DNA of 63,961 nucleotides, the filler included, from a bacterium (GTDB lineage: Bacteria; UBA9089; CG2-30-40-21; SBAY01), in NCBI GenBank assembly GCA_040757115.1. It is 8 parts of 8 records of this genome, joined end to end, with 100 filler letters (N's around TTAATTAATTAA, not from the genome) between each part and the next. Parts side by side here need not be neighbours in the genome. Positions count along the whole stretch, not along the records: positions 16,734 to 24,945 come from JBFLYA010000168.1; 7 more parts are not named here. One strand, written 5' to 3'. Shown piece by piece: positions 16,375 to 38,363 of this stretch. How positions within the stretch are numbered: the stretch's first letter is position 1; the number at the start of each line of letters is the position of its first letter. The position numbers and the translations under genes were made by a program. The notes under the pieces are model-generated. The model was not told the DNA's origin, did not search any database, and worked only from the letters and a program-made list of their open reading frames with translations.

Positions 16375-16449
16375 TGGCTCCCCGGGTAGGGCTCGAACCT
16401 ACAACCTAGCGGTTAACAGCCGCTCGCTCCACCATTGAGCTACCGAGGA
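16375..16449 (-). tRNA. tRNA-Asn(GTT)
   Basis: TCCTCGGTAGCTCAATGG...GCGGCT-GTT-AACCGC...GGTTCGAGCC...GGGGAGCCA cloverleaf with CCA. Confidence 0.97.
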
Positions 16450-16490: not shown

Positions 16491-16500
16491 GAAAAATTTT

Positions 16501-16633
16501 CGACCTGTGCGGTTAAATGTAAAATGAAAAATGTAAAATGTATAACTGAAAGGTAATGAGTCTTGCGAAGGAGTGAAATTTCCCATTTTTCATTTCCTAT
16601 TTTACATTTTACATTTATTTTTCCTTTGCGTCT
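16501..16633 (+). mobile_element. Element B, truncated by contig end
   Basis: CGACCTGTGCGGTTAAATGTAAAATG... matches the other B copies. Confidence 0.85.
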
Positions 16634-16973
16634 NNNNNNNNNNNNNNNNNNNNNNNNNNNNNNNNNNNNNNNNNNNNTTAATTAATTAANNNNNNNNNNN
16701 NNNNNNNNNNNNNNNNNNNNNNNNNNNNNNNNNTCGTGGTGAATAGTTACTCATATTGTTTGGAATTTTGAATTTTGGTCATTGGAATTTATTTGTATTT
16801 TGGAATTTGTGATTTGGAATTTTGCCACTTACTCCGCTCTCCTGCAATCTCTAATCTCCCGTTTATAGTTTATCCTTGTTTACCTCATCTTGTTACCCAA
16901 CTTGTGGGTAAGGATTAGACCCCCGCCAGCGGGGGACAACGGCCAATCAATCACTTGAATGGCGACAGAGCAC

Positions 16974-17161
16974 TAGTGTCGTGTTGAACAAATAACGCAC
17001 AGAATTTGATTCTGGTAACTGGTGATTGGTAACTGGTAATTAAATACCGTTCGGCTGATCTCAGGACGAAACTATTTAACCAATTACCAGTTACCAATTA
17101 TCCGTTTGCAGGTTATGAAATCTGATGATACTCCGTGCAAAACTTACTCAACACGACACTA
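16974..17161. mobile_element. TIR element (TAGTGTCGTGTTGA) with GGTAACT 7-mer arms
   Basis: Inverted ends TAGTGTCGTGTTGA / TCAACACGACACTA; related end at about 57565-57591. Confidence 0.7.
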
Positions 17162-17290
17162 TCCTCCTACCTACTTTCTCCCTTCCGCATCCGTCCATAA
17201 GTCTAATAAATCCAAAGCATTACGCCTCTGGCAATTTTTATTTCCATAAGGCAATTTTTATTCACCACAGAAGTTTAGTTATAAATTATG

Positions 17291-17708
17291 GTAACTGTTC
17301 AGGATATAGCCACAGAGTCACAGAGAACACAGAGGGAATATATAACTACGAATGAACACAAATACAAAAAAATTTCCACCTGTGCGGTTAAATGTAAAAT
17401 GGATAATGTAAAATGAAAATGTATAACTGAAAGGTAATGAGTCTTGCGAAGTACTAAAATTTCCCATTTTTCATTTCCTATTTTACATTTTACATTTATT
17501 TTTCCTTTGCGTCTCTGCGATGAATTAGTCTAATCGCACAGGTGGAAAAATTTGTAGTATGAGGCTTTAGCCTCGCTTCTGGCAAGCCAAAAGGCGAACC
17601 TAAAGATTCGCACTACATTTATGGGATGTCAGAGGTTAATTCGTGTGCATTTATGGTTAATTTCCTTAATTCTCTGTGAACTCTGTGCCTCTGTGGTGGA
17701 ACGCTTAC
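17291..17708. mobile_element. Element C (GTAAC-type TIR) with nested element B
   Basis: Perfect TSD AAATTATG; reverse homolog at 37518-37996, partial copy at 49571. Confidence 0.9.
17376..17545 (+). mobile_element. Element B, complete
   Basis: CCACCTGTGCG...CGCACAGGTGG with perfect TSD AAAAATTT. Confidence 0.9.
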
Positions 17709-18520
17709 AAATTATGTTCCTGAAGGAAATTGCTTGCCTTTTTTAAAAACTCTTTTTCTTCTTTAGTCAAACTATCCATTCCTTCGCTGGATATCTTATC
17801 TAATAAGGTATCAATCCGTTCTTTGATAAGACGGACTTCTATCTTTTGGTTTTCTCTCGTTTTCTCTTTTCTCTTATTTTTTGCTTCTGCAATGATTCTT
17901 GTTATTTTTTCCCAACTTAAGATATTCTTCAAATAAAGGTATCCAACTACCATCCCACCTAAATGAGCGAAATGGCCTATGCCATCAGGTGTATGCTTTA
18001 TACAGGCGAAGAACTCAATTATTCCAAAGAGGATAACAAAGTACCTTGCCTTCATTGGAAACAATCCAAAAAGTAATATGATATTATCCGGAAACATCAT
18101 TCCATAAGCGACTAATATGCCAAAAATAGCGGCTGATGCGCCAATTGAAGGGATAGTTGCATTAGGGGATAAAAGGCAGGTGGCTATTCCACCACCGATA
18201 CCTGTTAAGAAGTAGTAGTGAACAAATCTCTTTGTTCCCCAGACTGCCTCGATATTAGTTCCAAACATCCATAAGGCTAACATATTGAAGAGGATATGAA
18301 AAACATCCCCATGTAAAAACATATAGGTAAAGATTTGCCACAGCATAAATTCATGAAAAACTCGTATCGGAATTAATCCCAAAAAACCAATAAGTTGATT
18401 TAAGAAAAATAATTGGAGTATGAATATAATTCCATTAACGATAATCAGTTTTTTTACTCCAGAAGTCAATCGATAACCAAATCCTGTTTGATAATAATAT
18501 GGATACATACACCTTACCAT
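17705..18520 (-). CDS. Rhomboid family intramembrane serine protease
   Basis: WQIFTYMFLH, HILFNM, GASAA, AHLGG; C-terminal IDTLLDKIS helical domain. Confidence 0.93.
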   Translation of the reverse strand: MVRCMYPYYYQTGFGYRLTSGVKKLIIVNGIIFILQLFFLNQLIGFLGLIPIRVFHEFMLWQIFTYMFLHGDVFHILFNMLALWMFGTNIEAVWGTKRFVHYYFLTGIGGGIATCLLSPNATIPSIGASAAIFGILVAYGMMFPDNIILLFGLFPMKARYFVILFGIIEFFACIKHTPDGIGHFAHLGGMVVGYLYLKNILSWEKITRIIAEAKNKRKEKTRENQKIEVRLIKERIDTLLDKISSEGMDSLTKEEKEFLKKASNFLQEHNL

Positions 18521-18716
18521 CCTTTTGTATTCACTTTATGTATAGCAGTTATTAATCAAAACTTTACTTAGAATGGATAGAGCCCAATTTTTCGACCTGT
18601 GCGGTTAGAAATTACAAGCAAATTTCCTCAAACCTGAAAGGTTTGACTTTTACATAACCGTAGATAAAATCTACGGAGAGAACCCCTGCTTACTACTCAA
18701 CCCTGAAAGGGTTGAA

Positions 18717-18848
18717 TTCTAACGATAAAGTTCAGGTGCGGCGGGGAGAATTACCACAAAAGTTTGATAGCAAGATAAAACTTTGAGAGACCACAAAACT
18801 CTGACCACGGCACAGTCCCCCGCCGTCCGCTGCAACGATTTGTTAGGC
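18717..18848 (-). mobile_element. Integron attC site (132-bp type)
   Basis: Minus strand GCCTAAC-AAATC-GTTGCAGC...CCTGAAC-TTTATC-GTTAGAA with GCGGGG/CCCCGC stem. Confidence 0.88.
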
Positions 18849-18898
18849 AAAAGATTCCCTCCGCCGTCTTTTCTTCCTCTTCTGAGTTGCTTCCCTTC

Positions 18899-19921
18899 TT
18901 AATAATTTAGTATTGTGTCCCCAGAATTCCCAGAATTCCCACTGATTTGTCTCTCATATGGGCCAAGGAACCGCTCACCGTTGAAATGAATGATATGGCT
19001 TGGCGCCTCAGCGATCCAGACTTCGGTCTCCCACGCGATATCAGAAATGAATTTCGTCATAGCTCGTCGAGAGAGAAAAGCAGTCACAAAGACCAGCCCC
19101 GCCGTAGTATCTTTAAATAACTCTTTTAACTCATTGTGTCGCTTTAGACCAATAGGTCCGTGGCTTGTAACAGCTTCGATAAGGACAAGCCAATTCTTCT
19201 TCGGTAAATGAACAATAACATCAGGCATCTTCCCGTGTTCATCCAACATCAGTCCAAGATTGAAGAGATAGTCCTTCTCTACATGTCGCTGCTTGTTGCC
19301 TGTGTCGCCAACATAGATCAGTACCCCTCCAGGAGCAAATCTTGGACAAAACTCCTCAATAATTCTTCTGATAAGCTCGTTCTGACCACCAACCGTCAGC
19401 TTTAGTTGTTGACCATCGGGGAGATTAACTGGAATCAGATCCATTTGACGCTCCCTTGGTTCAAGCCGACGAAGCGACTCAGAGTTGTTTATGAAATTCT
19501 TCAGAGAATCATTCCACGAGTGGGAACCATACCTATGGCAAAGATTCAAGAGCGTCGGTACTACTTGATAGCGGTTATCAGGACTATTCACAGGTCTTGT
19601 AGAATCATCTGGATTCTGTATAACCAAACCCATCTGCACAAATTGGTGAATAGTGAATCGACGCACTGTTTCTCGGGTATTCGGGGCATACTTCTTGCCG
19701 AAATGTTTCTCAAAATAATTCATCATTTCGGTAATACCAAGCATAGGTGCCGTAGCATCTGCCCATCGCTTCCGAGTTGTCATACCCAGTAGAGCAAGAA
19801 GCGTAAGAGCAGAACGCTCGTTCTGCTGTTCTTTTGGAACCTTAATCGACTCGAGGATGTTCAGTGCTTCAGAAACTCTCTTTGCGACTCCCGTAGGTTT
19901 GCTTTGTGATCGATCAGCCAT
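18899..19921 (-). CDS. BsuBI/PstI family type II restriction endonuclease
   Basis: YAPNTRETVRR, HGKMPDV, EAVTSHGP, IAWETEVW, HFNGERFLGPY. Confidence 0.93.
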   Translation of the reverse strand: MADRSQSKPTGVAKRVSEALNILESIKVPKEQQNERSALTLLALLGMTTRKRWADATAPMLGITEMMNYFEKHFGKKYAPNTRETVRRFTIHQFVQMGLVIQNPDDSTRPVNSPDNRYQVVPTLLNLCHRYGSHSWNDSLKNFINNSESLRRLEPRERQMDLIPVNLPDGQQLKLTVGGQNELIRRIIEEFCPRFAPGGVLIYVGDTGNKQRHVEKDYLFNLGLMLDEHGKMPDVIVHLPKKNWLVLIEAVTSHGPIGLKRHNELKELFKDTTAGLVFVTAFLSRRAMTKFISDIAWETEVWIAEAPSHIIHFNGERFLGPYERQISGNSGNSGDTILNY

Positions 19922-21491
19922 TGTAAATAGCCTCCTTAACTATGCGATCCAGTTCATCTTGAGGCGGAAATATCTTGCCGATTCGCCGCCCAAGGAATTC
20001 AAGCTTATGCCATGATGGATACCGCAAACAACGGAGGTCGGTGGCGTTCACTTGAGTGTGTCCACTGAACTGCCGAAAATAGGAATCTACGATTGTCGAG
20101 TTCAGAAACGCAGCAAGTCCCTTTGCTCTGGTCAGTGGCAACTCCGAGTCTAAAGCATGATAATAGTTTAAGTGATTTTCAAATGCAACCTTATAAGCTG
20201 GAACGCGACGAGGGTCATATACCGCTGCCACTATCCGACGCCGTTCCTCCTTTGCTGAAAACCTCTTTACGAGAACATAACACTTCTGCGAGACGAAAAG
20301 TTCTTCTGCCCCTGGCTCAAGCAAGATAGCATTCGGCTTGCGAGTTTGATAATTAGGCCATTCGACAAAGCCACCCCGAAGGTGACAAGGATAGATAAGT
20401 GGAGCAGTATTCTCATCTGGACAGGGACGGAGTAAGTGTTTTGCTCGAAAATCTACGATTCGTCCGGTCGAGACTGCCAAGCCAAGATCTCTAAGATTCG
20501 AATCGAGTTTTTCAATCATATTCCTGATTGAATCTCCATTGCTATCTGGGACAATACGAATGAAGAGATGAGGATCGTCAGGCCGAATAAGATCTGTGTG
20601 ATCTGTTTTTCGAATTTTCAGGTTCGAATCGTTGAGATCAAGACTTGACGAGACAATTACTTTGTCGTTGATGGCCGGCGACTTAATTGCCTGAAATACG
20701 ATATTTTCTTGTAAAATTCCGTCGTCGGCGAAGGCTCGATTACGCGAATCAAATACGTGAATGCGACGGAACTGCATTTCCTTTAGAAAAAAATAGCGGA
20801 AGGGTTCAAAATAAAGTCCATTACAGAAACTCCTTGGAGTGATAGCAACCATTTCTCCACCTGGGACGAGAAGTTTAGCTGTCACTGCCAGAAAGCCAGT
20901 ATATAGGTTAGTTGTCTCGAGTCCAATAGATTGAAGCAACTTTCTCTCTCGGGATTTGGTATGAATTTTCCTATAGGGTGGATTGAGGATCGCACAGTCA
21001 AATCGCTCCTTCTCTCCAGTGATAAATAAATCGCCTGTGAATGAACTAATACCTGCTTCCAGGAAGTCCTGGTCAACAATACGTGCCTCAAATTGAATGC
21101 CCGCATCTTCACTCACTCTGCGGCAGAGATCAAGTGTCTTATGGAGATATGTGTTTAACAGAGGATCTATTTCATAGGTGGTCAAGGCTATCACTTTTGG
21201 ACGCTGATGCCTCCGGCAAATTGAAACTATCAAAGCGGCCGAAAGCGAGCCTACTCCAGCTCCAGGGTCAAGAATGCGGATAAAGGATTTTCTGCATTTG
21301 AACATGTCGGCCATAAATATCGCAACCGACAAAGGTGTTAAAAATTGACCCATGAGAGCACGTCGCCGAGAGTCCAGTTGAAGAGTTACTTCCCTGCGGG
21401 CGACCTCAATTGATGACAGAAGTAAATTCTCATCTGCTTTTATAGTTTGTTCGAGAACCTTTATTTGGGTGTTCATTATTTCTTCTTCCAT
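19914..21491 (-). CDS. Eco57I-domain N6-adenine methyltransferase (BsuBI/PstI-type)
   Basis: GQFLTP, LDPGAGVG, NPPY, PRSFCNG, SGHTQVNATDL. Confidence 0.93.
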   Translation of the reverse strand: MEEEIMNTQIKVLEQTIKADENLLLSSIEVARREVTLQLDSRRRALMGQFLTPLSVAIFMADMFKCRKSFIRILDPGAGVGSLSAALIVSICRRHQRPKVIALTTYEIDPLLNTYLHKTLDLCRRVSEDAGIQFEARIVDQDFLEAGISSFTGDLFITGEKERFDCAILNPPYRKIHTKSRERKLLQSIGLETTNLYTGFLAVTAKLLVPGGEMVAITPRSFCNGLYFEPFRYFFLKEMQFRRIHVFDSRNRAFADDGILQENIVFQAIKSPAINDKVIVSSSLDLNDSNLKIRKTDHTDLIRPDDPHLFIRIVPDSNGDSIRNMIEKLDSNLRDLGLAVSTGRIVDFRAKHLLRPCPDENTAPLIYPCHLRGGFVEWPNYQTRKPNAILLEPGAEELFVSQKCYVLVKRFSAKEERRRIVAAVYDPRRVPAYKVAFENHLNYYHALDSELPLTRAKGLAAFLNSTIVDSYFRQFSGHTQVNATDLRCLRYPSWHKLEFLGRRIGKIFPPQDELDRIVKEAIYNG

Positions 21492-21511
21492 TCAATTACA
21501 ATCTTTATATC

Positions 21512-21578
21512 CACTAACGACCAGGTTTAGACGCGACGGTGTGTCATCGCTGACATCGTTCGGAGCGTCTTATTATGC
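21512..21578 (-). mobile_element. Degenerate short attC site
   Basis: GCATAAT...GTCGTTAGTG just downstream of the stop codon; GTGCATAAT pairs 7/9 with this cassette's start GTTAGGCAC. Confidence 0.65.
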
Positions 21579-21581
21579 ACA

Positions 21582-22538
21582 TTAGAAAAGTGGTAAGTTG
21601 CCAGCATTCGTATCAAGTGCTTCGATTTTAGAAAAAATAATCTTCGGTTTACTTGCGTTGTAGCCACCGAAGTCGTCCAATCTGCTAATTGATCCATAAA
21701 TGCGGCAATTTACGAAAATCGCATTCTTATAATTAACAATGCTTCCCGTCTCCGGGTAACAGGCCAAAATGTGGTCCTTATACATGAATCCAAGACTATT
21801 GGTATTTTCGTTTCCTTTCGTGATGTGCCCTTCCAGAGTTACTTCCTGTCCATGAACAAGTTCTGGAAAAAGAATCTCTTCTTCGACATCGAGTGTAAAA
21901 ATTCTCCGTTGTTGGTAAGGAATAGATTCTCGTATCAATTCGCCATTCTTGTATACGCCGATTTCCAGTCTACGCTCTTCTTCAATCAGTTCCGCCATTT
22001 TCTTGAGAAGTCCAGGGTTAACAGGGATATAAAACTCGAAGAACTTCTTTGGAATAAAAAGGTACTCCCCCTTTTGATTTGGTATTCCTATTTCGGTGTT
22101 CTCATTTCTAAACTGCGGATTTTCAAATTTCTTTCTTATTAGTCCATCCAGATGTTTGCCAATACGGATAGTCCATTGAATCGCTTCCACCGCATGAACA
22201 AAAATATCTTTTAGTCCCTTCTTCTCGAAATCCTTGTCGGCCATTTTCTTTGCAGCTGTCACTAAGTAGGTTGTTACACCAGTTGTTACACCAACACCGA
22301 CGGCTCTTACAACCCAATCAATGAGGCTGGTGGGAATGAGGGCTTCCCAAGAACCTTTACGTAACCGAACAGGAATTTCGAAATCTAAATCGCGCAGTGA
22401 CGGTGATTGTTGACCAACAAAAAATCGTATCGCTTCATCAAAGCCCAGTAGGGCTTGGGCTGCTTTTCGAGCATCAAGTAGACCGTCCTCGATAAGCTTC
22501 CCTTCATATTTGAGATATCCGATATATTCTTCGTCCAT
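21582..22538 (-). CDS. Hypothetical protein (gene cassette)
   Basis: 318-aa ORF exactly filling the interval between two attC sites. Confidence 0.8.
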   Translation of the reverse strand: MDEEYIGYLKYEGKLIEDGLLDARKAAQALLGFDEAIRFFVGQQSPSLRDLDFEIPVRLRKGSWEALIPTSLIDWVVRAVGVGVTTGVTTYLVTAAKKMADKDFEKKGLKDIFVHAVEAIQWTIRIGKHLDGLIRKKFENPQFRNENTEIGIPNQKGEYLFIPKKFFEFYIPVNPGLLKKMAELIEEERRLEIGVYKNGELIRESIPYQQRRIFTLDVEEEILFPELVHGQEVTLEGHITKGNENTNSLGFMYKDHILACYPETGSIVNYKNAIFVNCRIYGSISRLDDFGGYNASKPKIIFSKIEALDTNAGNLPLF

Positions 22539-22558
22539 TCTATTGAAGCCTCATTTGT

Positions 22559-22690
22559 GCCTAACGATAAAGTTCAGGTGCGGCGGGGAGAATTACCACA
22601 AAAGTTTGATAGCAAGATAAAACTTTGAGAGACCACAAAACTCTGACCACGGCACAGTCCCCCGCCGTCAACTGCAACGCAGGGTTAGAC
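22559..22690 (-). mobile_element. Integron attC site (132-bp type)
   Basis: GTCTAAC...GTTAGGC, near-identical to 18717-18848. Confidence 0.88.
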
Positions 22691-22790
22691 AAAAGCTTTA
22701 ATTCGCTGTTTTTTCCCTTTTCCTCTGCCTCACCGAATTATTGTGCATTCCACATTCACGGTTTGACCCTAAAATCTCCCCTATTATTTT

Positions 22791-22946
22791 ACCACGAAGA
22801 GCACGAAGGTCACGAAGATTGGACAAGACAAATCTTTTTCTGTCTTTTTTCAATCTTTCTACATTAAAATTTATTAACAAGCCAACTTTAATATTTGCTA
22901 ACTTTATTAGATATTTCATCAAATTTCACTTCGTGTCCTTCGTGGT
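22791..22946 (-). pseudogene. GxxExxY remnant between CACGAAG 9-mer inverted arms
   Basis: (V/M)KFDEISNKV joined via AAGTT to KLANIKVGLLINFNVERLKKDRKRFVL. Confidence 0.8.
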
Positions 22947-22959
22947 TTAATCTCTTTTA

Positions 22960-23092
22960 GTCTAACGATAAAGTTCAGGTGCGGCGGGGAGAATTACCAC
23001 AAAAGTTTGATAGCAAGATAAAACTTTGAGAGACTACAAAACTCTGACCACGGCACAGTCCCCAGGCGGTCAACTGCAACGCAGGGTTAGAC
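22960..23092 (-). mobile_element. Integron attC site (132-bp type)
   Basis: GTCTAAC...GTTAGAC. Confidence 0.88.
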
Positions 23093-23217
23093 AAAAGCTT
23101 TGATTCGCTGTCTTTTCCTTTTCCTCTGCCTCACCGAATTATTGTGCATTCCACATTCACGGTTGACCCTAATATCTCCCTTACTGGTTAGAAAGTTCCC
23201 AAAATTTGTCCATATTC

Positions 23218-23625
23218 TTATCGTAACCAAAAGAATTTAACCAATTTCGCATTATCTATAGGATCGAATTCTTTATGATCAGTTGTCACAACCTTACCCT
23301 TTAAAGTTTCTGCAAGTCCAATAACGAATGCATCTGCTAACGAAATTTGGTAAGATGCTTTATATTTTCCGACTATCTTTAGAAATTCAATAGACATATC
23401 TTCTATGTATCGGATAGGAAGTTGCTCCAAGTCATTAAGCACTTTTTCTGCTCGTTTTATACCGTCCGCCTTGTAATATCCATAATAAACCTCACAGAGA
23501 TTAATATGATGAAGATAGACATTATTATCTTTATTTTCTAAGAGGTCTTTTACCTTTTCTCCGCCTTCTTCCGCATTGAGAAAGGCAATGACTGCACAGG
23601 CATCCAGAATAAAGGAATTCTTCAT
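23218..23625 (-). CDS. PIN/VapC family toxin
   Basis: ILDACAVIA, NLCEVYY, SLADAF, VTTDHKEFD. Confidence 0.9.
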   Translation of the reverse strand: MKNSFILDACAVIAFLNAEEGGEKVKDLLENKDNNVYLHHINLCEVYYGYYKADGIKRAEKVLNDLEQLPIRYIEDMSIEFLKIVGKYKASYQISLADAFVIGLAETLKGKVVTTDHKEFDPIDNAKLVKFFWLR

Positions 23626-23855
23626 TATCTATACTCCAATTTTTTCTCTTTCGCCTTTATCTTTGTAAAAAGGTCTGTTGTAAGGCTCGATCCCTTTGTT
23701 GAACCAAAGACCTTTTCAACAGCACTTTCCCTGCCGATTTTTATTGTCAGCATTTTGGTTCGTAAAAATTCGGTAAAGTCATAGACTTCCTTCTTTTTAT
23801 CGTCCGGTAGAATATCAAAAATTCGTATGAAATCTTTTGTCAATATTGTTTCCAT
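23625..23855 (-). CDS. DUF2281-like antitoxin
   Basis: LPDDKKKEVYDFTEFL; ATG at 23855 after AAGGAG; coupled to the PIN gene. Confidence 0.75.
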   Translation of the reverse strand: METILTKDFIRIFDILPDDKKKEVYDFTEFLRTKMLTIKIGRESAVEKVFGSTKGSSLTTDLFTKIKAKEKKLEYR

Positions 23856-24012
23856 TGCTTTCTCCTTTCTAAAAACCGAAGTTTCTAGATAAATACTATT
23901 TTTCTTCATCTGATCCTCTCTTTATGCTCTTTATCTCTTTAATAGTTAGGATACTATATTGTCTTTCTCTTCTCAAGCATCATTTTCTATGACAAGGAAG
24001 TTTTGTTTGGAT

Positions 24013-24084
24013 GTCTAACGACTAAGCTCACCGGCGGCAATGGAGCGCAGCGGAATTGCCGTCCGGTGCAGCGCCTTGTTAGCC
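24013..24084 (-). mobile_element. Integron attC site (72 bp)
   Basis: GGCTAAC-AAGGC-GCTGCACC...GGTGAGC-TTAGTC-GTTAGAC; the gene's TAA lies within the inverse core. Confidence 0.93.
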
Positions 24085-24840
24085 ATTCTCATTCTGTTTC
24101 GCAGTTGGGCAAAGGTCTTTCATGTAGCAGTCGCCACATACTGGGCCGTCTGACTTACACCAGTTTCTGCCTATCTCCCAGCATGGCAAGTCCATCATTC
24201 CTGGGAACTCTGGATAAAGTGCCCGTGCCCTGTCTATCACTTGTTCAACGGTAACGTCGGCGGAACATAGACCAAGTCGGGAGAAGACTCGACATACATG
24301 TACATCCGCTGAGATGTCAATTGAGGAGTAGTCCGAAAAGGGAATCTTGAAATCGCGTGCGAGAATATTGGCGGCCATGCTACCGATTTTGGGACCAACC
24401 CCTTCGAATTCCCGGAAACGATATACAACCTCCGCACTGGAAGGCTTGCCTTTCCAGATAATGGCAGCATCACCCTCATAGTCGTTCTTGATTCGCTGCA
24501 CCGCTGAATAGAAGTGATCGGTCATCGTGTCAACGAACCGATGGAGAGGTTCCGGTTCCCTCATGAGACGTTTCACATCTTGCCGCGATAGTTCACTCAT
24601 CCTTTGCACCGAAAACCCGCCGATCTTCTGCGAAATGCGATATGGAATCAGCCATGCTCTCTCCGCTCTGACTTGACGATCCATGAGGCATGCTAGGACG
24701 AAAGCATGCGGATGATTGTCCAGGTCATTCAGCAAGGCATCGGCCTGTGGTTCCTTGGTGAAGGTAATCAGCTGCTTCGGCGCGCGGAACAATATTTGCC
24801 CGTGTTCAACCAGTCTGTCGCGTATTGATTTCTCGCTCAT
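24079..24840 (-). CDS. Endonuclease III-like HhH-GPD DNA glycosylase with 4Fe-4S motif (gene cassette)
   Basis: FEGVGPK, ADVHVCRVFSRLG, C-x6-C-x2-C-x5-C. Confidence 0.85.
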   Translation of the reverse strand: MSEKSIRDRLVEHGQILFRAPKQLITFTKEPQADALLNDLDNHPHAFVLACLMDRQVRAERAWLIPYRISQKIGGFSVQRMSELSRQDVKRLMREPEPLHRFVDTMTDHFYSAVQRIKNDYEGDAAIIWKGKPSSAEVVYRFREFEGVGPKIGSMAANILARDFKIPFSDYSSIDISADVHVCRVFSRLGLCSADVTVEQVIDRARALYPEFPGMMDLPCWEIGRNWCKSDGPVCGDCYMKDLCPTAKQNENG

Positions 24841-24846
24841 TTGTAC

Positions 24847-24945
24847 TCCTAACGATAAAGTTCAGGTGCGGCGGGGAGAATTACCACAAAAGTTTGATAG
24901 CAAGATAAAACTTTGAGAGACCACAAAACTCTGACCACGGCACAG
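24847..24945 (-). mobile_element. Integron attC site (132-bp type), contig-truncated
   Basis: Matches the other copies; GTTAGGAG doubles as the RBS of the next gene. Confidence 0.85.
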
Positions 24946-25045
24946 NNNNNNNNNNNNNNNNNNNNNNNNNNNNNNNNNNNNNNNNNNNNTTAATTAATTA
25001 ANNNNNNNNNNNNNNNNNNNNNNNNNNNNNNNNNNNNNNNNNNNN

Positions 25046-25221
25046 TTTCGGATTGTAATGAATCTTCATACTTACAACCCCCTAACCCCCTTTATATACT
25101 TACAACCCCCTAACCCCCTTTATATACTTACAACCCCCTAACCCCCTTTATTAAGGGGGAATATCTGTCCTCTACCTCTAATCTTTTCTATATTTGGGTG
25201 AGGGAATTTCGTGAAGCCCTA
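25046..25221 (-). repeat. DUF559-associated repeat (ACAACCCCCTAACCCCCTTT x3) plus TAGGGCTTCACGAAA end
   Basis: Reverse copy of 63560-63710; encodes start MKIHYNPK. Confidence 0.75.
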
Positions 25222-25623: not shown

Positions 25624-28149
25624 TTAGCCTTCTATCTTTTCAATCCGCACTCGGGTAGGACCTAAATAGTCTTTTTTAATTAAACTCAAGACATTTTTAC
25701 CTGGGTGATGTGGAATAAAAACAACACCTTTTGGAGATTTACGAATGATTTTAGTTTTTACCTTAATTCCTGCTTCTCGCGAACTGACCTTGACTAATTC
25801 TTCATTTTCAATCTCTAATGCTTTAGCATCTTCTGGATTTATTTCGACAATCGACTCCTGACAAACCTCCATCAATGCGGGTGATTTTCCAGACATTGAG
25901 CCAGAATGAAAATGGGTATGCCCTGTTAGTAATAAAAAGGGATAATATTTGTCTTCTACGGGCAATTTTTCAAATGTTTGTGGCACAAACTTCCATTTAA
26001 GTCTTTGCGTTCCTTTGTCTGGTGTACTATAGCCTGGCACAAGGCTCTTTATTTCATCCATTACCTCTGCTGAATTAGAGTAATTTATCTCATAACCTAA
26101 TAATTTTGATAATGTTATAAATATTTCGAGGTCTGATTTAGATTTACCTATTGGGGACAATGCCATATTCAATTTTTGCACCTTCCCCTCAACATTGGTA
26201 AAAGTCCCTTCTTTTTCGGCAAAAGCACAGGCAGGTAAGACGACATCGGCTAATTTAGCCGTTTGGGTTAAAAACATATCCTGAACAACTAAAAACTCCA
26301 GAGATTCTAAAGCCTGTTTAATCTGGTCTGAATCAGGGTAAGTTTCAATTGGATTTTCTGCCACAATATAAAGCCCTTTTACCTTGCCTTTTTCTAATAT
26401 TTCTAAGGCAGATAGTCCTCTAAAAGATGGTAATTTCACATTCCAAACCTGTTCAAATTTTTCTCTTATTTTATAATCTGTTATTTCCTGATAACCGGGT
26501 AAAAATCCTGATATTGTTCCCATATCTACTGTGCCTTGAGAATTATTTTTTTCAAGTAAGATTCCTATTCCTGCACCTTCTTTCCCTAAATTTCCAGTAA
26601 GTAGTGCAAGATTTGCGGCAGATTGAGCTAATTTGACTTCCTCGCCAGGTAAATTCAAACCAGTAGAAATCAAAATAATCGCTTTTTGTGAATTACCATA
26701 AGTCTTAGCGGCATTCTTAATGAGTTCTTTATCTATCCCGGTTATCTTTGACACTTCCTGGGGGGTATATTTTTCAACTGATTTTTTCAGTTCACCAAAT
26801 CCTTCAGTATGTTTTGAAATGAAATCCTTATCTACCAATCCCTCATTTATCAGGACATTAATGATGCTATTGAGCAGGGCAATTTCAGTTTTTGGATGGT
26901 GGATGAGGGAGAGGTTTGGAAGTTTGCTCATTTTTATATTTTTCGGATTTATGATGATTAATTTAGCCTCATTTCTTTTAACTGCCAGATTAACCTTTAT
27001 ACCAATTGTCGGATGGGTTTCTGAAAGGTCACATCTTAGAAGCACAATACAATCTGCTTTGTCAATATCCGAAAGAGAGATTGTCATCCCGGCAGAGCCT
27101 AAAGATTGCTTTAATCCCATAAGACCTGCGTAAGCGTAGCTGCCGGCATTATCAATATTATTAGTTTGCAAGCCCGCGCGCATAAGTTTCTGGAAGAGAT
27201 AAACTTCTTCATTTGTCAGGCGACTACCACAAAGTCCAGCTAAATTATTAGCCGGAATTTCTTTAAATTTTTTAGCGATTAAATCAAGTGCCTCTTCCCA
27301 ACTTGCCTCAATCAATTGGTCATCTTTTTTAATTAAAGGCGTTGTAAGTCTTTGTTGGCTATGAACATATTCAAAACCAAACCTACCTTTACTGCATAGA
27401 TTCCCACCATTACTTGTTGCTTGAAATATTTTATTATCTTTAATTCCGAGGTTAAGATGACAGCCGACACTACAAAATGGGCAAATAGTCTGAACATTTT
27501 GTAATTCCCAGAGTCGGGCTTTATATTTAAAAAGTTTAGAAGTCAACGCCCCAACCGGGCAAATATCAATACACTGGCCACAAAATTCACAATTCAGAGC
27601 TCGGTCAAAATCTGTGCCTATTTTAGCTCTAATGCCCCGATTAACAAAGCTAACCTCGGCGACATCCTGTAATTCATCACAAATCCTGGCACATTTACCA
27701 CACAGGATACAGCGATTTAGATTGCGTTCGATAAGGTGACTCTGATGGTCTATTGGCAATCTTGATTTTTCACCTTTAAACCTATTTTCTGCAACGCCAT
27801 ACTCATAGACTAAATCCTGTAATTGGCATTCACCGGCTTTATCACAAACAGGGCAATCCAGAGGATGATTAATCAGCAAGAGTTCCAAAATAGTCTTTCT
27901 CGCTTTGATAATATCCGCAGAGGTAGTTTTTACTACCATCCCATTAGTTGCTGGTGTAGTGCAGGAAGGGGTGAATTTTTGCCTTGTTCCTTCTACCTCG
28001 ACAATACAAATTCGGCAGGCACCAAAAGGTAAAAGTCTTTTATCGTAGCACAATGTTGGAATATGACTTCCTGCTTTTTCGCAAGCCTCAAGGATTGTTG
28101 TTCCTTCTTCTACCTGTATTTCTTTTTCGTCAATAGTTAAACTTAACAT
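25624..28149 (-). CDS. nuoG: NuoG-like molybdopterin-family Fe-S oxidoreductase subunit
   Basis: 2Fe-2S, HPLDCPVCDKAGECQLQ, 2x4Fe-4S and CPFCSVGC..C motifs; lacks the FDH Cys/Sec-His active site. Confidence 0.75.
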   Translation of the reverse strand: MLSLTIDEKEIQVEEGTTILEACEKAGSHIPTLCYDKRLLPFGACRICIVEVEGTRQKFTPSCTTPATNGMVVKTTSADIIKARKTILELLLINHPLDCPVCDKAGECQLQDLVYEYGVAENRFKGEKSRLPIDHQSHLIERNLNRCILCGKCARICDELQDVAEVSFVNRGIRAKIGTDFDRALNCEFCGQCIDICPVGALTSKLFKYKARLWELQNVQTICPFCSVGCHLNLGIKDNKIFQATSNGGNLCSKGRFGFEYVHSQQRLTTPLIKKDDQLIEASWEEALDLIAKKFKEIPANNLAGLCGSRLTNEEVYLFQKLMRAGLQTNNIDNAGSYAYAGLMGLKQSLGSAGMTISLSDIDKADCIVLLRCDLSETHPTIGIKVNLAVKRNEAKLIIINPKNIKMSKLPNLSLIHHPKTEIALLNSIINVLINEGLVDKDFISKHTEGFGELKKSVEKYTPQEVSKITGIDKELIKNAAKTYGNSQKAIILISTGLNLPGEEVKLAQSAANLALLTGNLGKEGAGIGILLEKNNSQGTVDMGTISGFLPGYQEITDYKIREKFEQVWNVKLPSFRGLSALEILEKGKVKGLYIVAENPIETYPDSDQIKQALESLEFLVVQDMFLTQTAKLADVVLPACAFAEKEGTFTNVEGKVQKLNMALSPIGKSKSDLEIFITLSKLLGYEINYSNSAEVMDEIKSLVPGYSTPDKGTQRLKWKFVPQTFEKLPVEDKYYPFLLLTGHTHFHSGSMSGKSPALMEVCQESIVEINPEDAKALEIENEELVKVSSREAGIKVKTKIIRKSPKGVVFIPHHPGKNVLSLIKKDYLGPTRVRIEKIEG

Positions 28150-28161
28150 TTCTTTACCTTA

Positions 28162-28434
28162 TTATACAGAAACTAATCTTTTTTGAACGGTTACAGTCAC
28201 ACCGTATCCTAAACGGTTTAAAAATTCTTCACAATCATCCCATGTAATTCCAAATGCCTTCACATCACTTAGTCCTAAACAGCCGATGATTTCCCGTAAG
28301 GTATCAAAATTTACCTTATCAAATTCAGCTTCCATCATCATTGATTCTGCCCAATTTACTAATTCCTCTATGGTGAGCCGATGGTAGAGATAATCTATTA
28401 ATTTTTGTGCCACCTCTTTACTTGTAACCTTCAA
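28162..28434 (-). CDS. Hypothetical protein (possible antitoxin/immunity)
   Basis: 90-aa acidic helical ORF; GGAGG RBS in the upstream gene's end. Confidence 0.65.
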   Translation of the reverse strand: MKVTSKEVAQKLIDYLYHRLTIEELVNWAESMMMEAEFDKVNFDTLREIIGCLGLSDVKAFGITWDDCEEFLNRLGYGVTVTVQKRLVSV

Positions 28435-28440
28435 TTGAAA

Positions 28441-28689
28441 TTACCTCCCGTAAGTTTTATGTCCTTTATCTACCGGATATTTTTCATGAATTTCAACTAA
28501 TTCCCCTTTTTCATTATAAATTTCTTGATAGAACCTAATTGTTTTTTCTGATGAATCAACTTCTTTAATATACTGAGCCTTCCATCCATAACGACCCTGA
28601 ACTTCATAGAAATATCTTCGACCGCCATTTTCTAATTTCACCCAATTACCAAACTTTTGTTCATTCTCTCTTCGTTTATCTCTATCCAT
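28441..28689 (-). CDS. Hypothetical protein (possible small toxin)
   Basis: 82-aa beta-rich ORF ending IHEKYPVDKGH. Confidence 0.7.
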   Translation of the reverse strand: MDRDKRRENEQKFGNWVKLENGGRRYFYEVQGRYGWKAQYIKEVDSSEKTIRFYQEIYNEKGELVEIHEKYPVDKGHKTYGR

Positions 28690-28697
28690 TAGTATCT

Positions 28698-29876
28698 CTA
28701 CCTATCTATCTCCCCCAAAACAATGTCCAGACTGCCGATGATGGCAACGACATCTGCAACCATCATTCCACCTTCAATCATCCTGTCAATAGACTGCAAA
28801 TTAGCAAAAGATGGCGGACGAATTTTTAAACGATATGGTTTATTTGAGCCATCTGAGATGATATAAAATCCAAGTTCTCCCTTTGGAGCTTCGATAGACT
28901 GATAGATCTCTTTTTGAGGTGGTTTAAATCCTTCAATGACTAATTTGAAATGGTGGATAAGTGCTTCTATGTCTGTCAAAACCTTATCTTTTGGTGGTGG
29001 AACAATTTTTGCCTCTTTGGCAATAAAATCACCCTCAGGGATTTGAGCAAGAGCCTGTTGGACAATTCTACAACTCTGTCTCATCTCTTCCATTCGCACC
29101 AAATATCTATCGTAAACATCCCCTACCCCTCTACCCGTAGGAATATCAAACTCAAGTTCACCATAGACACAATACGGTTCTACTTTACGAATATCCCATT
29201 GAACACCGCTACCTCGCAATGAGGGGCCAGAAAGGCTATAATTAATTCCATCCTCTTTCGAAATAATACCGACAAATTGGGTGCGTCGGAGCCAAATCTC
29301 ATTTTTAGTCAATAAAGCCTCATATTCATCTACCTTTTTGGGAAATATCTTCACAAATTTTTCTACCTTTTCAACAAATCCTGTGGGTATATCTTGTGGC
29401 AAACCACCTATTCTAAAACAGGAGGTAGTGAGTCTTGCTCCACAGAATAATTCATAAATATCCAGGATTGCCTCTCTTTCACGAAAGGCATATAAAAATG
29501 GGGTATAGGCACCAATGTCAAGGGCATGAGTCCCTATCCAGACTAAATGACTGGCAATTCTATTTAATTCAGTAAGTATAACGCGAATATAACTTGCTCG
29601 TTTTGGGACTTCCAAATTGAGTAATTTCTCGACTGCCAAACAATAAGCCAGGTTATTGGAGACAGCGGCTAAATAGTCCAACCTATCCGTTACAGGCAAA
29701 AATTGGGCATAGGTCATATTTTCCGCCATTTTCTCTATCCCGCGATGTAAATAACCGATATGTGGAGTAATTTTGGTAATAATTTCCCCATCTAAATTTA
29801 ACACCAGCCGCAAAACACCATGCGTGCTTGGGTGTTGAGGACCCATATTAATTGTTAATTCTTGAGTATCAGGCAT
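28698..29876 (-). CDS. nuoD: NADH-quinone oxidoreductase subunit D
   Basis: NMGPQHPSTHGVLRL, GYLHRG, DRLDY, DIVLGEIDR. Confidence 0.97.
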   Translation of the reverse strand: MPDTQELTINMGPQHPSTHGVLRLVLNLDGEIITKITPHIGYLHRGIEKMAENMTYAQFLPVTDRLDYLAAVSNNLAYCLAVEKLLNLEVPKRASYIRVILTELNRIASHLVWIGTHALDIGAYTPFLYAFREREAILDIYELFCGARLTTSCFRIGGLPQDIPTGFVEKVEKFVKIFPKKVDEYEALLTKNEIWLRRTQFVGIISKEDGINYSLSGPSLRGSGVQWDIRKVEPYCVYGELEFDIPTGRGVGDVYDRYLVRMEEMRQSCRIVQQALAQIPEGDFIAKEAKIVPPPKDKVLTDIEALIHHFKLVIEGFKPPQKEIYQSIEAPKGELGFYIISDGSNKPYRLKIRPPSFANLQSIDRMIEGGMMVADVVAIIGSLDIVLGEIDR

Positions 29877-35991: not shown

Positions 35992-37499
35992 GATTTTTCC
36001 CGCACACTCCGAATAAAAGTCTGAATTTGTCTGGGCTGAATTGCTCCTGTAACTATTATACCTATTCCATAAAATAATACCGCCAGCAATCCTCCCCAAA
36101 CAGTATCAAATAATCTGATGTGTTGAATAACAACTAAGCTGATGGTAACTGAAATAACTACCTTAACCAATATCCACCACTTTAAATGATAACCAATAAA
36201 GTGCTGTATGACAAACAATGCCAGAATTACTAATGTGATTTCTCTCATACATGTAGCGACTGCGGCACCTATGTAACTGAATCGCGGAATTAATAGAATA
36301 TTAAGAGTTGCATTGATGATTACCCCACCCATACCAAAGGCAAGCGAAAACCATTGTTGTCGTATAATAATGAACATAGGTCCTATTATAGCACTGAGGT
36401 GCATAATAGTGATTGTCAGAGCCAATATCCTCAAAGCGGGTGTGGCTTCTACTGCCTCTGGACCAAACAAATTCATAAGAAAGCCAGCCCCGGCTACTAC
36501 TCCACAAAATGTTGCCCCAGCTAACAGAATAGAACAGTCCATTCCCTGCTGATATAATTTCCTCAGGTCGTCCATGCGGTGACCCCAGTAAGACGATAAT
36601 ATGGGATATAAGGTGGTCATCAGAGCAGTAGGGATGAGCACCAACGGTAGCATAAACCGATAGGCGGCGGAATAGAGACCAACCGATTTCCAACTATCCA
36701 TCCAGGAAAGCATAAATATGTCCAGGCTGGTGTAGATACTGACCATGAACATAGATATACCTATTGGCAAGGCGGCGATAAACCCCTTTCGAATATCAAC
36801 AGTATTCCATCGCTCAATGTATAAATTGTAATCCCGGCGTCCTAAGGCAAATGCCACCAGAAAATAGACCATTCGTGAACATACAAAGGCAATAAATATG
36901 ACCGAGAGTCCTCCGCCAAAATAACAAACTTCAACCAAAAGTCCAAAAAACACCACTGTACTCACCAATTCAGCTATCATATCACACTGTATCTTAAGCA
37001 TTGCTTTAAATAATCCCTTATATATAAATATCCCTCCAAAAAATACTAATTCCAGTCCACCTATGAGCCCGGCATAAACCACCTCCTTAGAATATCCCGA
37101 TAGAACTAAGAGCCCAACAATCACTATATAGGCGACAATAATCTGGAGCATTTTGGAATATGTCAAAGCCGATAATAGTGATTGTTTTCGATATGGGTGT
37201 TGGTGAACTTCCCGAACAAAGATTTCATTTAGTCCAAAATCTAAAATGGTCTCACCAAAACTTAATATAATCAGAATGAGCGAATATTGTCCAAATCGTT
37301 CCCCTCCCCAAAAACGAAAAATGAGAAAATTACCGAGATACCTAAAAACGGTTATAATTATCCGGGCGATTACCTGCACACCGATATTTTTTAACACTGC
37401 CCAGTTAATATTTTTGGGCAATAGAGCAGTATGAACGCGTGTCTCTACCTCGTCAGTGTCATAGTTATTATCTTTGTTTGCTACTGGATTTTTATTCAT
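35988..37499 (-). CDS. Wzx-type polysaccharide flippase
   Basis: Many TM helices, DFGL, VGLYSAAYR, LNILLIP..IGAAVAT. Confidence 0.88.
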   Translation of the reverse strand: MNKNPVANKDNNYDTDEVETRVHTALLPKNINWAVLKNIGVQVIARIIITVFRYLGNFLIFRFWGGERFGQYSLILIILSFGETILDFGLNEIFVREVHQHPYRKQSLLSALTYSKMLQIIVAYIVIVGLLVLSGYSKEVVYAGLIGGLELVFFGGIFIYKGLFKAMLKIQCDMIAELVSTVVFFGLLVEVCYFGGGLSVIFIAFVCSRMVYFLVAFALGRRDYNLYIERWNTVDIRKGFIAALPIGISMFMVSIYTSLDIFMLSWMDSWKSVGLYSAAYRFMLPLVLIPTALMTTLYPILSSYWGHRMDDLRKLYQQGMDCSILLAGATFCGVVAGAGFLMNLFGPEAVEATPALRILALTITIMHLSAIIGPMFIIIRQQWFSLAFGMGGVIINATLNILLIPRFSYIGAAVATCMREITLVILALFVIQHFIGYHLKWWILVKVVISVTISLVVIQHIRLFDTVWGGLLAVLFYGIGIIVTGAIQPRQIQTFIRSVREKS

Positions 37500-37517
37500 T
37501 TGCCTGTTGAGTTTTTT

Positions 37518-37996
37518 GTAACCGTTCAGCCACAGAGGCACAGAGTTCACAAAGAATTAGAGAAATTAGCCACAAATGGACACGAATTAACCTGTGACAT
37601 TCGATAAATGTAGTGCGAACCTTATTGCTTTTTCATAAATAGGTTCCTCTTTTGGGGAGAGCGATAGCAAGAAGAACTTTAATGTAAATATCAAAATGCA
37701 AATATCAAAATTACAATGCAAAATGCAAAAATACTTGTAAATTAACAAAGTAGCTGGAGAATATTTTGATTTTTGATTTGTAATTTTACATTTTGATGTT
37801 TGATTTTTAATTTATTTTATGGTATTCCAGAAAAGTGGAAGTTAATTTTGCAAAAACCATTAGGTTCGCTTTCCTGTTTGCCAGAAGCGAGGCTAAAGCC
37901 TCGCACTACAAATCTTTTTATTATTCGTGTTCATTCGTGGTTATATATTCCCTCTGTGTTCTCTGTAACTCTGTGGCTATATCCCTGAACGGTTAC
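37518..37996. mobile_element. Element C with a different nested 7-mer-arm element (about 37623-37861)
   Basis: GTAACCGTTCAG...CTGAACGGTTAC; reverse homolog of 17291-17708. Confidence 0.8.
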
Positions 37997-38363
37997 CCTT
38001 TTTTCAATCTTTCCACATTGAAATTTATCAATAGACCAACCTTGATATTTGCCAATTTCATATATGGTAATGGGTCAGTGAAATGGGGGATTCTCCTGAA
38101 AGTAGGAAGTAGGAGAGTAGGAAAGTAGGAAAGGGGGAGACATTGCCCCCAGAAGAGGAATACCGTGCACATCCTTTATCCCTTTCCTACTTACCTACTA
38201 CCTACTTGCCTACTATTTTCATTTCTTTGTCCTCCGCAGGTTAATGTTCATTCCCCCAAATAACTGACTTATTACCATATATGTCAATATTTGAGCTTCA
38301 TGAATTCGATAATTCATCAAATTTCACTTCGTGCTCTCCGTGTCCTTCGTGGTGAATAGTTAC
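37997..38363 (-). pseudogene. GxxExxY remnant, internally deleted and interrupted by a MITE
   Basis: (V/M)KFDELSN / IHEAQILTY [insertion] MKLANIKVGLLINFNVERLKKG. Confidence 0.8.
38066..38276. mobile_element. MITE with GGTAAT..GTCAGT TIR
   Basis: 12/14 TIR match; ATATAT duplicated on both sides; AGTAGG / CCTACT arms. Confidence 0.82.

Follow-up and report, generated by a model that had tools for sequence, protein, structure and literature searches.

Positions 18717-24945 of the DNA analysed here very probably belong to the cassette array of a large integron on the chromosome of an uncultivated groundwater bacterium. The array holds five or six cassettes, which carry a putative endonuclease-III-like glycosylase, a VapBC-like toxin-antitoxin (TA) pair, a gene remnant, a gene for a 318-amino-acid (318-aa) protein and a PstI-type restriction-modification (RM) pair. 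Each cassette is a promoterless or self-promoted minus-strand unit closed by an attC site. The whole stretch that was analysed (the window, 63,961 bases) consists of eight contigs of ∼8.2 kb with N...TTAATTAATTAA...N spacers between them, and the array contig is the third of the eight (16734-24945). The break at the array edge, reported in an earlier note on this DNA, is a genuine contig end, and the N spacer begins at 24946. The nearest genome compared, G001, was taken as a stand-in for the species (32% of sampled words in common); backbone matches between the array contig and G001 reached 96-97% identity. Reads were represented by three Logan runs, kept as contigs, from one groundwater study that probably includes the source sample.

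A repeat core of 23 nucleotides (nt) occurred four times on the plus strand (0 expected from 100 shuffles). With the copy at 22559-22690 as query, blastn returned 18719-18837 (98.3% identity), 22962-23092 (96.9%) and 24848-24945 (100% over 98 nt), which agrees with the four near-identical 132-nt copies described earlier, one of them cut by the contig end. In single-stranded DNA folds of the plus strand, the long copies and the short site at 24013-24084 each formed a long imperfect stem, separated by an unpaired spacer from a CTAAC/GTTAG closing helix. The fold of the 72-nt site reached -19.1 kcal/mol (z -3.16), and its two single-base bulges both fell on the plus-strand 3' arm; the z-scores of the long copies were modest (-1.4 to -2.3).

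To describe the resident type, we aligned 48 distinct copies of the 132-nt class, of which the window supplied 3 and 20 G001 contigs the other 45. The consensus folds into a TAAC/GTTA R box of 4 pairs, a spacer of 5-6 nt and an L stem of 16 pairs whose bulges, at columns 123 and 130, are confined to the 3' arm. In the consensus and in the 72-nt site alike, the two bulges lie 7 nt apart on this arm. Pairing was kept in 96.4% of cells and fell to 35-59% when the partners were slid by 1-3 columns. Changes on both sides were found in 28 cells of the stem (shuffles 7.6 ± 2.2, with 0 of 500 reaching 28). Conservation across the copies ended exactly at the TAAC (GTT/AAC) core on the side of the next cassette, as is expected if a crossover within the GTT triplet joins cassettes.

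Two covariance models were used for scoring. R1 was built from the 48 resident-type copies and R2 from 29 attC sites on foreign metagenome contigs only. The R2 training sites came from 13 loci carrying a homologue of the 318-aa gene, picked by eye after an R1 search with the filters off, and 27 of the 29 matches lay on the strand opposite the gene. On the plus strand R1 gave 155-171 bits for the three whole copies, 71.9 bits for the cut copy (24877-24947) and 50.2 bits (E 4e-12) for the short site (24009-24088), vs. 13-16 bits for the reverse strand of the same sites (for 22559-22690, 171.1 vs. 16.2 bits). R2 scored 24009-24088 at 63.8 bits (E 3e-14), 18713-18852 at 54.9, 22555-22694 at 50.8 and 22956-23096 at 40.6 bits, and its E values for the attC sites of the window ranged from 3e-8 to 3e-14. 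The sites are listed below.

24847-24945, minus strand: attC of the 132-nt type, truncated by the contig end, R'/L' side only; its core GTTAGGA (24847-24853) opens cassette 1
24013-24084, minus strand: short attC of 72 nt, closing cassette 1; inverse core GGCTAAC at 24078-24084
22960-23092, minus strand: attC of the 132-nt type, closing cassette 2; R1 155.2 bits, R2 40.6 bits
22559-22690, minus strand: attC of the 132-nt type, closing cassette 3; R1 171.1 bits, R2 50.8 bits; fold -19.2 kcal/mol
21512-21578, minus strand: degenerate attC-like site between the 318-aa and methylase genes; R1 10.5 bits, R2 12.3 bits
18717-18848, minus strand: attC of the 132-nt type, last on the contig; R1 167.6 bits, R2 54.9 bits

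Five of these sites are attC, and the sixth (21512-21578) is not solid, because of its R1 and R2 scores. The earlier note had proposed six attC sites; five of them stand by covariance model and fold, and the one at 21512-21578 failed both models. The extrahelical bases of the bottom-strand fold, whose absence it had named as a ground for refutation, were present at five sites, as bulges on the 3' arm with strand-specific scores. Its other ground for refutation, a repeat scattered singly without regard to gene ends, was not borne out, since the copies are strand-specific, lie at gene ends and are co-oriented in 15 of 15 multi-copy G001 contigs. Its suggestion that the short sites look imported did not gain support: G001 arrays hold many attC matches of 66-71 nt beside the ∼140-nt class, and the 24013-24084 type recurs in one of these arrays at 91% identity. 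No Rfam family matched the array contig at E ≤ 1. A crude detector based on core plus fold was rejected as unspecific (33/62 downstream regions vs. 16/62 coding controls at -10 kcal/mol).

The cassettes carry the following genes.

24079-24840, minus strand: cassette 1 (∼24019-24852, 834 bp), 253-aa putative HhH-GPD / endonuclease-III-like glycosylase
23625-23909, minus strand: cassette 2 (∼22966-24018, 1053 bp), 94-aa DUF2281 / VapB-like antitoxin
23218-23625, minus strand: cassette 2, 135-aa PIN-domain (VapC-like) toxin; Pfam PIN 64.8 bits, cut-off 23.6
22698-22922, minus strand: cassette 3 (∼22565-22965, 401 bp), 3' remnant of a PD-(D/E)XK_3 ('GxxExxY') gene
21582-22538, minus strand: cassette 4, 318-aa protein outside Pfam families, with a C-terminal OB fold; a single-gene cassette elsewhere
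19914-21491, minus strand: cassette 5 (∼18723-21517, 2795 bp), 525-aa type II N6-adenine DNA methyltransferase
18899-19921, minus strand: cassette 5, 340-aa endonuclease of the BsuBI/PstI family, overlapping the methylase gene by 8 nt

Every cassette gene lies on the minus strand, and the cassette bins have a GC content of 0.41-0.48, vs. 0.30-0.41 in the other contigs of the window; co-orientation and GC-richer cassettes had both been claimed from the sequence and both hold. The same is true of the claim that several genes end at an inverse core and start just after a GTTAG core. The inverse core GGCTAAC contains the stop codon of the glycosylase gene, that of the 318-aa gene comes 3 nt ahead of its site, and the starts of the glycosylase, 318-aa and methylase genes are 9-21 nt past a GTTAG core. 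A scan for promoters and terminators gave no support for either (7 promoter-like sites vs. 10.6 expected and 5 terminator-like sites vs. 6.5 expected); one of the promoter-like sites lies ahead of the antitoxin gene, at 23976-23948.

Profile searches returned the same cargo that the earlier note had named: glycosylase, DUF2281-PIN pair, GxxExxY remnant, 318-aa unknown and BsuBI/PstI RM. The glycosylase scored below the family cut-offs (Pfam HhH-GPD 23.3 bits, cut-off 26.2; TIGR03252 72.6 bits, cut-off 136.5) and matched endonuclease III in the PDB at E 2.4e-4. Its translation contains a GVG hairpin, an Asp after the hairpin and a C-terminal C-x6-C-x2-C-x5-C motif. The antitoxin passed the Pfam DUF2281 cut-off (28.8 bits, cut-off 26.5) and matched NCBIfam TA_VapB at E 1.1e-5. 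It is encoded directly upstream of the toxin, with the two genes overlapping by one base, as in VapBC pairs, and both proteins fall below the NCBIfam VapB/VapC equivalog cut-offs. The remnant in cassette 3 comprises the last ∼30 codons of its gene and aligns with positions 90-117 of the 117 in Pfam PDDEXK_3 (E 0.0019). In cassette 5, both endonuclease domains are above the cut-offs of 27 (BsuBI_PstI_RE 209.1 bits, BsuBI_PstI_RE_N 164.4 bits; PADLOC REase_II 441.3 bits) and the methyltransferase is adjacent (PADLOC MTase_II 498.5 bits; Pfam Eco57I 46.9 bits), the arrangement of a BsuBI/PstI RM system. PADLOC gave no match for the 318-aa protein, the glycosylase or the TA genes.

The attC-like site between cassettes 4 and 5 is probably a decayed attC. 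It sits at the usual attC position of cassettes with a homologue of the 318-aa gene, and its GTTAGTG core is 21 nt ahead of the methylase start. It begins GCATAAT-AAGA-CGCT, and the attC sites of several homologues begin GCATAAC-AAGG-CGCT; the inverse core is GCATAAT, with AAC changed to AAT. Its fold is weak (z -0.74) and does not include a closing helix. A single Logan contig covers 18890-22586 without a break, this site included. Since the attC between them appears decayed, cassettes 4 and 5 are probably fused into one unit of 3842 bp.

G001 extends the picture beyond the contig. The 132-nt type is present at at least 43 places in this genome, the contigs with 2-7 copies have them in a single orientation (15/15), and within the array spans all open reading frames (ORFs) longer than 210 aa are on the matching strand. 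Among 64 ORFs of the G001 arrays we found PIN (4), PemK (2), MqsA (2), DUF2442 (2), DUF4258 (2) and PDDEXK_3 (2) proteins. The 318-aa, endonuclease and glycosylase proteins of the window were not found in G001, which suggests that close genomes differ in their cassettes, although absence is not provable in a fragmented assembly. G001 also carries pieces of an integron integrase: on TIGR02249 (cut-off 265) contig C220 holds an N-terminal piece (125.5 bits) and contig C611 a C-terminal piece (208.7 bits), which meet at the same profile position and include the integron-specific insert region. The relatives of this integrase, at 67-89% identity, are in Desulfobacterota, Nitrospirota, anammox Planctomycetes and others. 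In a set of 30 genomes around G001, 13 had an integrase match at E ≤ 1e-30 and 7 had one above the family cut-off. R2 matched attC sites in 23 of the 30, with counts of at least 88 for G001 and 1-23 for the others, and attC arrays were present in 21 of 24 searched genomes of the same phylum.

If the array functions as established integrons do, the plus (bottom) strand of each attC would form a hairpin made up of an R box, an unpaired spacer and an L stem that bears bulged bases. The integron integrase would bind this fold and cut between G and TT of the GTTAG core, and cassettes would be excised as circles and reinserted at an attI site beside the integrase gene. The integrase end is expected past 24945, on another contig, and the attI site and Pc promoter would also fall past this contig end. 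Cassettes far from the integrase end would mostly be a silent stock, save those with a promoter of their own, as is expected of the TA pair.

Several results weigh against reading 18717-24945 as part of a large integron. No integron integrase was found in the 64-kb window by tblastn (best E 2.1), as the earlier note had seen. The integrase gene of G001 is interrupted twice, and a further C-terminal fragment on G001 contig C745 (214.9 bits) has an in-frame TGA. The attC-like site between cassettes 4 and 5 (scored as 21508-21582) reached E 1.4 with R1 and E 0.65 with R2; R2 ranked it fifth in the window, barely over chance matches at 10.1 bits. Stem pairs with a compensatory change numbered 4, which is not above shuffles (289/500). 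Both covariance models are custom-built and are not the IntegronFinder model, and the training sites of R2 were themselves derived with R1. Cassette order across the repeats rests on short-read assembly, and the link of the array to the backbone, where a rhomboid gene is located (17705-18520), runs through repeats and is not secure.

The array could be a frozen relic of a lineage that lost its integrase, with immobile and decaying cassettes, which would differ from the integron reading on present activity only. The split G001 integrase fits such a history. The N-terminal part is broken by a small inverted-repeat element, with a target duplication; the second insertion has 13-nt inverted ends and an 8-bp target duplication and starts with a GxxExxY (PD-(D/E)XK_3) gene (coordinates read at G001:C220 485-715 and 1-123, and G001:C611 1-132). 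The in-frame stop in the second integrase fragment, the gene remnant in cassette 3 and the decayed look of one attC point the same way. However, the 132-nt copies are still 96.9-100% identical, the cargo tested was not found in G001 despite the 96-97% backbone identity, which argues for recent turnover, and 7 of 30 relatives have intact integrases above the cut-off. We regard a relic as doubtful, though it is the strongest of the competing explanations. Far less credible, and in our view very improbable, is that the 132-nt repeat is a palindrome of the repetitive extragenic palindromic (REP) or miniature inverted-repeat transposable element (MITE) kind, unlinked to integrons and intergenic by chance or for transcript stability. 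The genome is indeed rich in small inverted-repeat elements (e.g., 16973-17161 and 17367-17553, with many G001 copies), and the z-scores of the long-copy folds are modest (-1.4 to -2.3). Such elements do not account for the single orientation in G001 contigs, for GTTAG/CTAAC cores at which conservation stops, for asymmetric bulges, for detection by a model trained on attC sites of other organisms, or for an integron integrase in the same species-level relative.

A partly chimeric contig, in which the cassettes are real and their order and their attachment to the rhomboid gene and MITE-like repeat arose from the collapse of ∼100 near-identical repeats, is also unlikely, somewhat more so than a relic. 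The contig ends inside an attC, and summed Logan depth over the attC bins was ∼36,000-39,000, vs. ∼310-370 in unique cassette parts; the ∼100-fold ratio is a rough hint of about a hundred attC copies. The backbone join depends on a 146-nt Logan unitig of depth 1169 that bridges 18591-18723 (unique parts ∼320-350), and the same backbone point in G001 runs on into other repeats. Many joints were found at attC edges. Those of the 'skip' and 'go back' kind, considered as traces of circular cassettes, were discarded: every one of them falls at the edge of an attC or a flank and has sides of 23-38 nt, which is the mark of repeats rather than circles. Against a chimera, single Logan contigs with no differences span 18890-22586 (318-aa and RM genes), 23143-24053 (TA genes) and 24052-24877 (glycosylase), so each cassette is sound together with its flanking attC edges. 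In run X2 the TA cassette was covered and the restriction and glycosylase cassettes were almost uncovered, although contigs cannot prove absence.

The integron reading places the array among known systems. The superintegron of Vibrio cholerae is a sedentary chromosomal integron with ∼125-nt Vibrio cholerae repeat (VCR) attC sites. The array works like an integron of this type and has the features of it that can be tested: near-identical long attC sites in large number, co-oriented genes, many TA cassettes and content that differs between close genomes. Unlike the Vibrio superintegron, it belongs to an uncultivated groundwater bacterium, it mixes a long (∼140-nt) with a short (∼66-72-nt) attC class, an extra conserved stretch of 50-130 nt lies on the gene side of about half of the resident sites, and the integrase is not seen in the window and is disrupted in G001. 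IntegronFinder applies the category CALIN to a cluster of attC sites with no integrase nearby. The array contig resembles a CALIN in having at least two attC sites in one orientation with no integrase within reach; it differs in that the label hinges on a contig break. Since no integrase lies in the window, complete integron vs. CALIN stays undecided, as the earlier note had it. The array could represent the distal end of a complete integron, because the species-level relative holds an integron integrase.

Restriction systems in integron cassettes are known. The RM pair resembles PstI/BsuBI systems in its endonuclease domains, far above the Pfam cut-offs, in its N6-adenine methylase partner and in its overlapping genes; its location in an integron cassette is unusual for the family. 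Chromosomal integrons have been described as defence biobanks, with cassettes that encode defence systems (10.1101/2024.07.02.601686). Integron-borne HhH glycosylases of Vibrio ('Dag') defend against phages with modified DNA, according to a second preprint (10.1101/2025.10.29.685425), which also cites a paper on mobile integrons encoding defence. The array resembles these defence cassettes in carrying a predicted two-gene type II RM system and a putative HhH-superfamily glycosylase; the glycosylase keeps an endonuclease-III-type iron-sulfur motif, a possible difference from the published ones. The cargo agrees with published work in which chromosomal integrons act as reservoirs of genes for phage defence and addiction. 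Because defence cargo in chromosomal integrons is already reported, the array adds to a known kind and leaves the understanding of integrons unchanged. It extends large chromosomal integrons to a lineage of uncultivated groundwater bacteria, and Vibrio-type cargo of defence and addiction (restriction, HhH glycosylase, TA) recurs far from Vibrio.

The 318-aa protein of cassette 4 has 560 homologues of the same length, all annotated as 'hypothetical' at most. Its AlphaFold2 model (pLDDT 81.8) contains an OB fold at residues 222-318, with middling similarity (Z 8.6-6.7) to domains of RecG (wedge), MCM, RPA, PriB and SSB. Foldseek found no match of the model in the PDB at E ≤ 0.001, and the OB fold comes from a wider search alone. 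The protein scored 11.6 bits against DUF7946 (PF25678), below the cut-off of 27; 7 of 30 homologues matched DUF7946 at E ≤ 1 (best 0.0096), and an Atlas feature score of 0.93 to DUF7946 clusters serves as a lead only. The N-terminal part is at best distantly DUF7946-like. The literature searched made no mention of DUF7946 or DUF7947.

The family recurs next to attC sites. In 80 metagenome loci with a homologue, R2 found at least one attC in 25, and 62 of 64 matches were on the expected strand; R1 with default filters had detected only 4 sites across these loci. An attC was located 3-41 nt 3' of the homologue gene in 16 of the 80 loci (two pairs are duplicates and 11 are within the R2 training loci); additional loci had one immediately ahead of the gene. 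Many homologue genes are visibly flanked by GTTATGC-type and GCATAAC-type cores. Given its recurrence as a single-gene cassette in many environmental bacteria, the 318-aa family could be a widespread, unstudied one that travels as a one-gene integron cassette and encodes a new stand-alone effector, for phage defence or aimed at single-stranded nucleic acid, a tentative and rather unlikely reading. The OB-fold family is a concrete candidate for phage-challenge screening.

About half of the resident attC copies have a conserved stretch on their gene side. One example in the window, and a neighbouring stretch at the array end, are as follows.

23093-23183, minus strand: conserved stretch directly 5' of attC, common to 22691-22781; 93.5% identity over 93 nt
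18608-18716, no strand assigned: 110 nt containing three short hairpins, flanked by the last attC and the end of a repeat

The pre-attC stretch is found in the window at 22691-22820, 23093-23183 and 18849-18873, each on the gene side of a resident attC, and it accompanies ∼27 attC copies on 20 G001 contigs, behind unrelated genes. In G001 it reaches 49-130 nt, and its ends cluster near 81-92 and 130 nt. It had no Rfam match, and the folds of two 90-nt examples did not exceed those of shuffled sequence (z -1.27 and -0.18). It may have arisen by amplification of a cassette tail, by recombination, or as a module that comes with the attC. On a reading weaker than that of the effector, it could be a module that is attached to incoming genes during cassette formation in the host. 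The 110-nt stretch at 18608-18716 has 81% matches in G001 arrays, on contigs C262 and C523.

Other repeats were noted around the array. An element of ∼185 nt at 17367-17553 has 17-nt terminal inverted repeats (of the CCACCTGTGCG type); G001 has many copies of it, it coincides with contig ends, and further copies are found at 16492-16633, the end of the previous contig, and as a lone end at 18584-18607. The palindromic, MITE-like repeat of ∼190 nt at 16973-17161 matches itself on both strands and has more than 15 copies in G001 at 93-98% identity. Three exact tandem copies of a 28-nt unit are located at 25068-25151, at the start of the next contig.

CTGCAG occurs at 3 sites in the 63 kb vs. 6.7 expected, which decides nothing on avoidance. 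Of ten six-base palindromes examined, GATATC had the strongest deficit in the whole window (10 vs. 36.7 expected under a maximal-order Markov model), which may be due to restriction-site avoidance. A second Eco57I-like / N6 DNA methylase gene (550 aa) is present on the previous contig at 14671-16323, outside the array, and adjoins a tRNA-Asn gene (16375-16449). Beyond the array contig, 25624-29876 carries NADH dehydrogenase genes (NuoG-like, 841 aa; NuoD, 392 aa), and the nearest named NuoD homologues are 91-92% identical.

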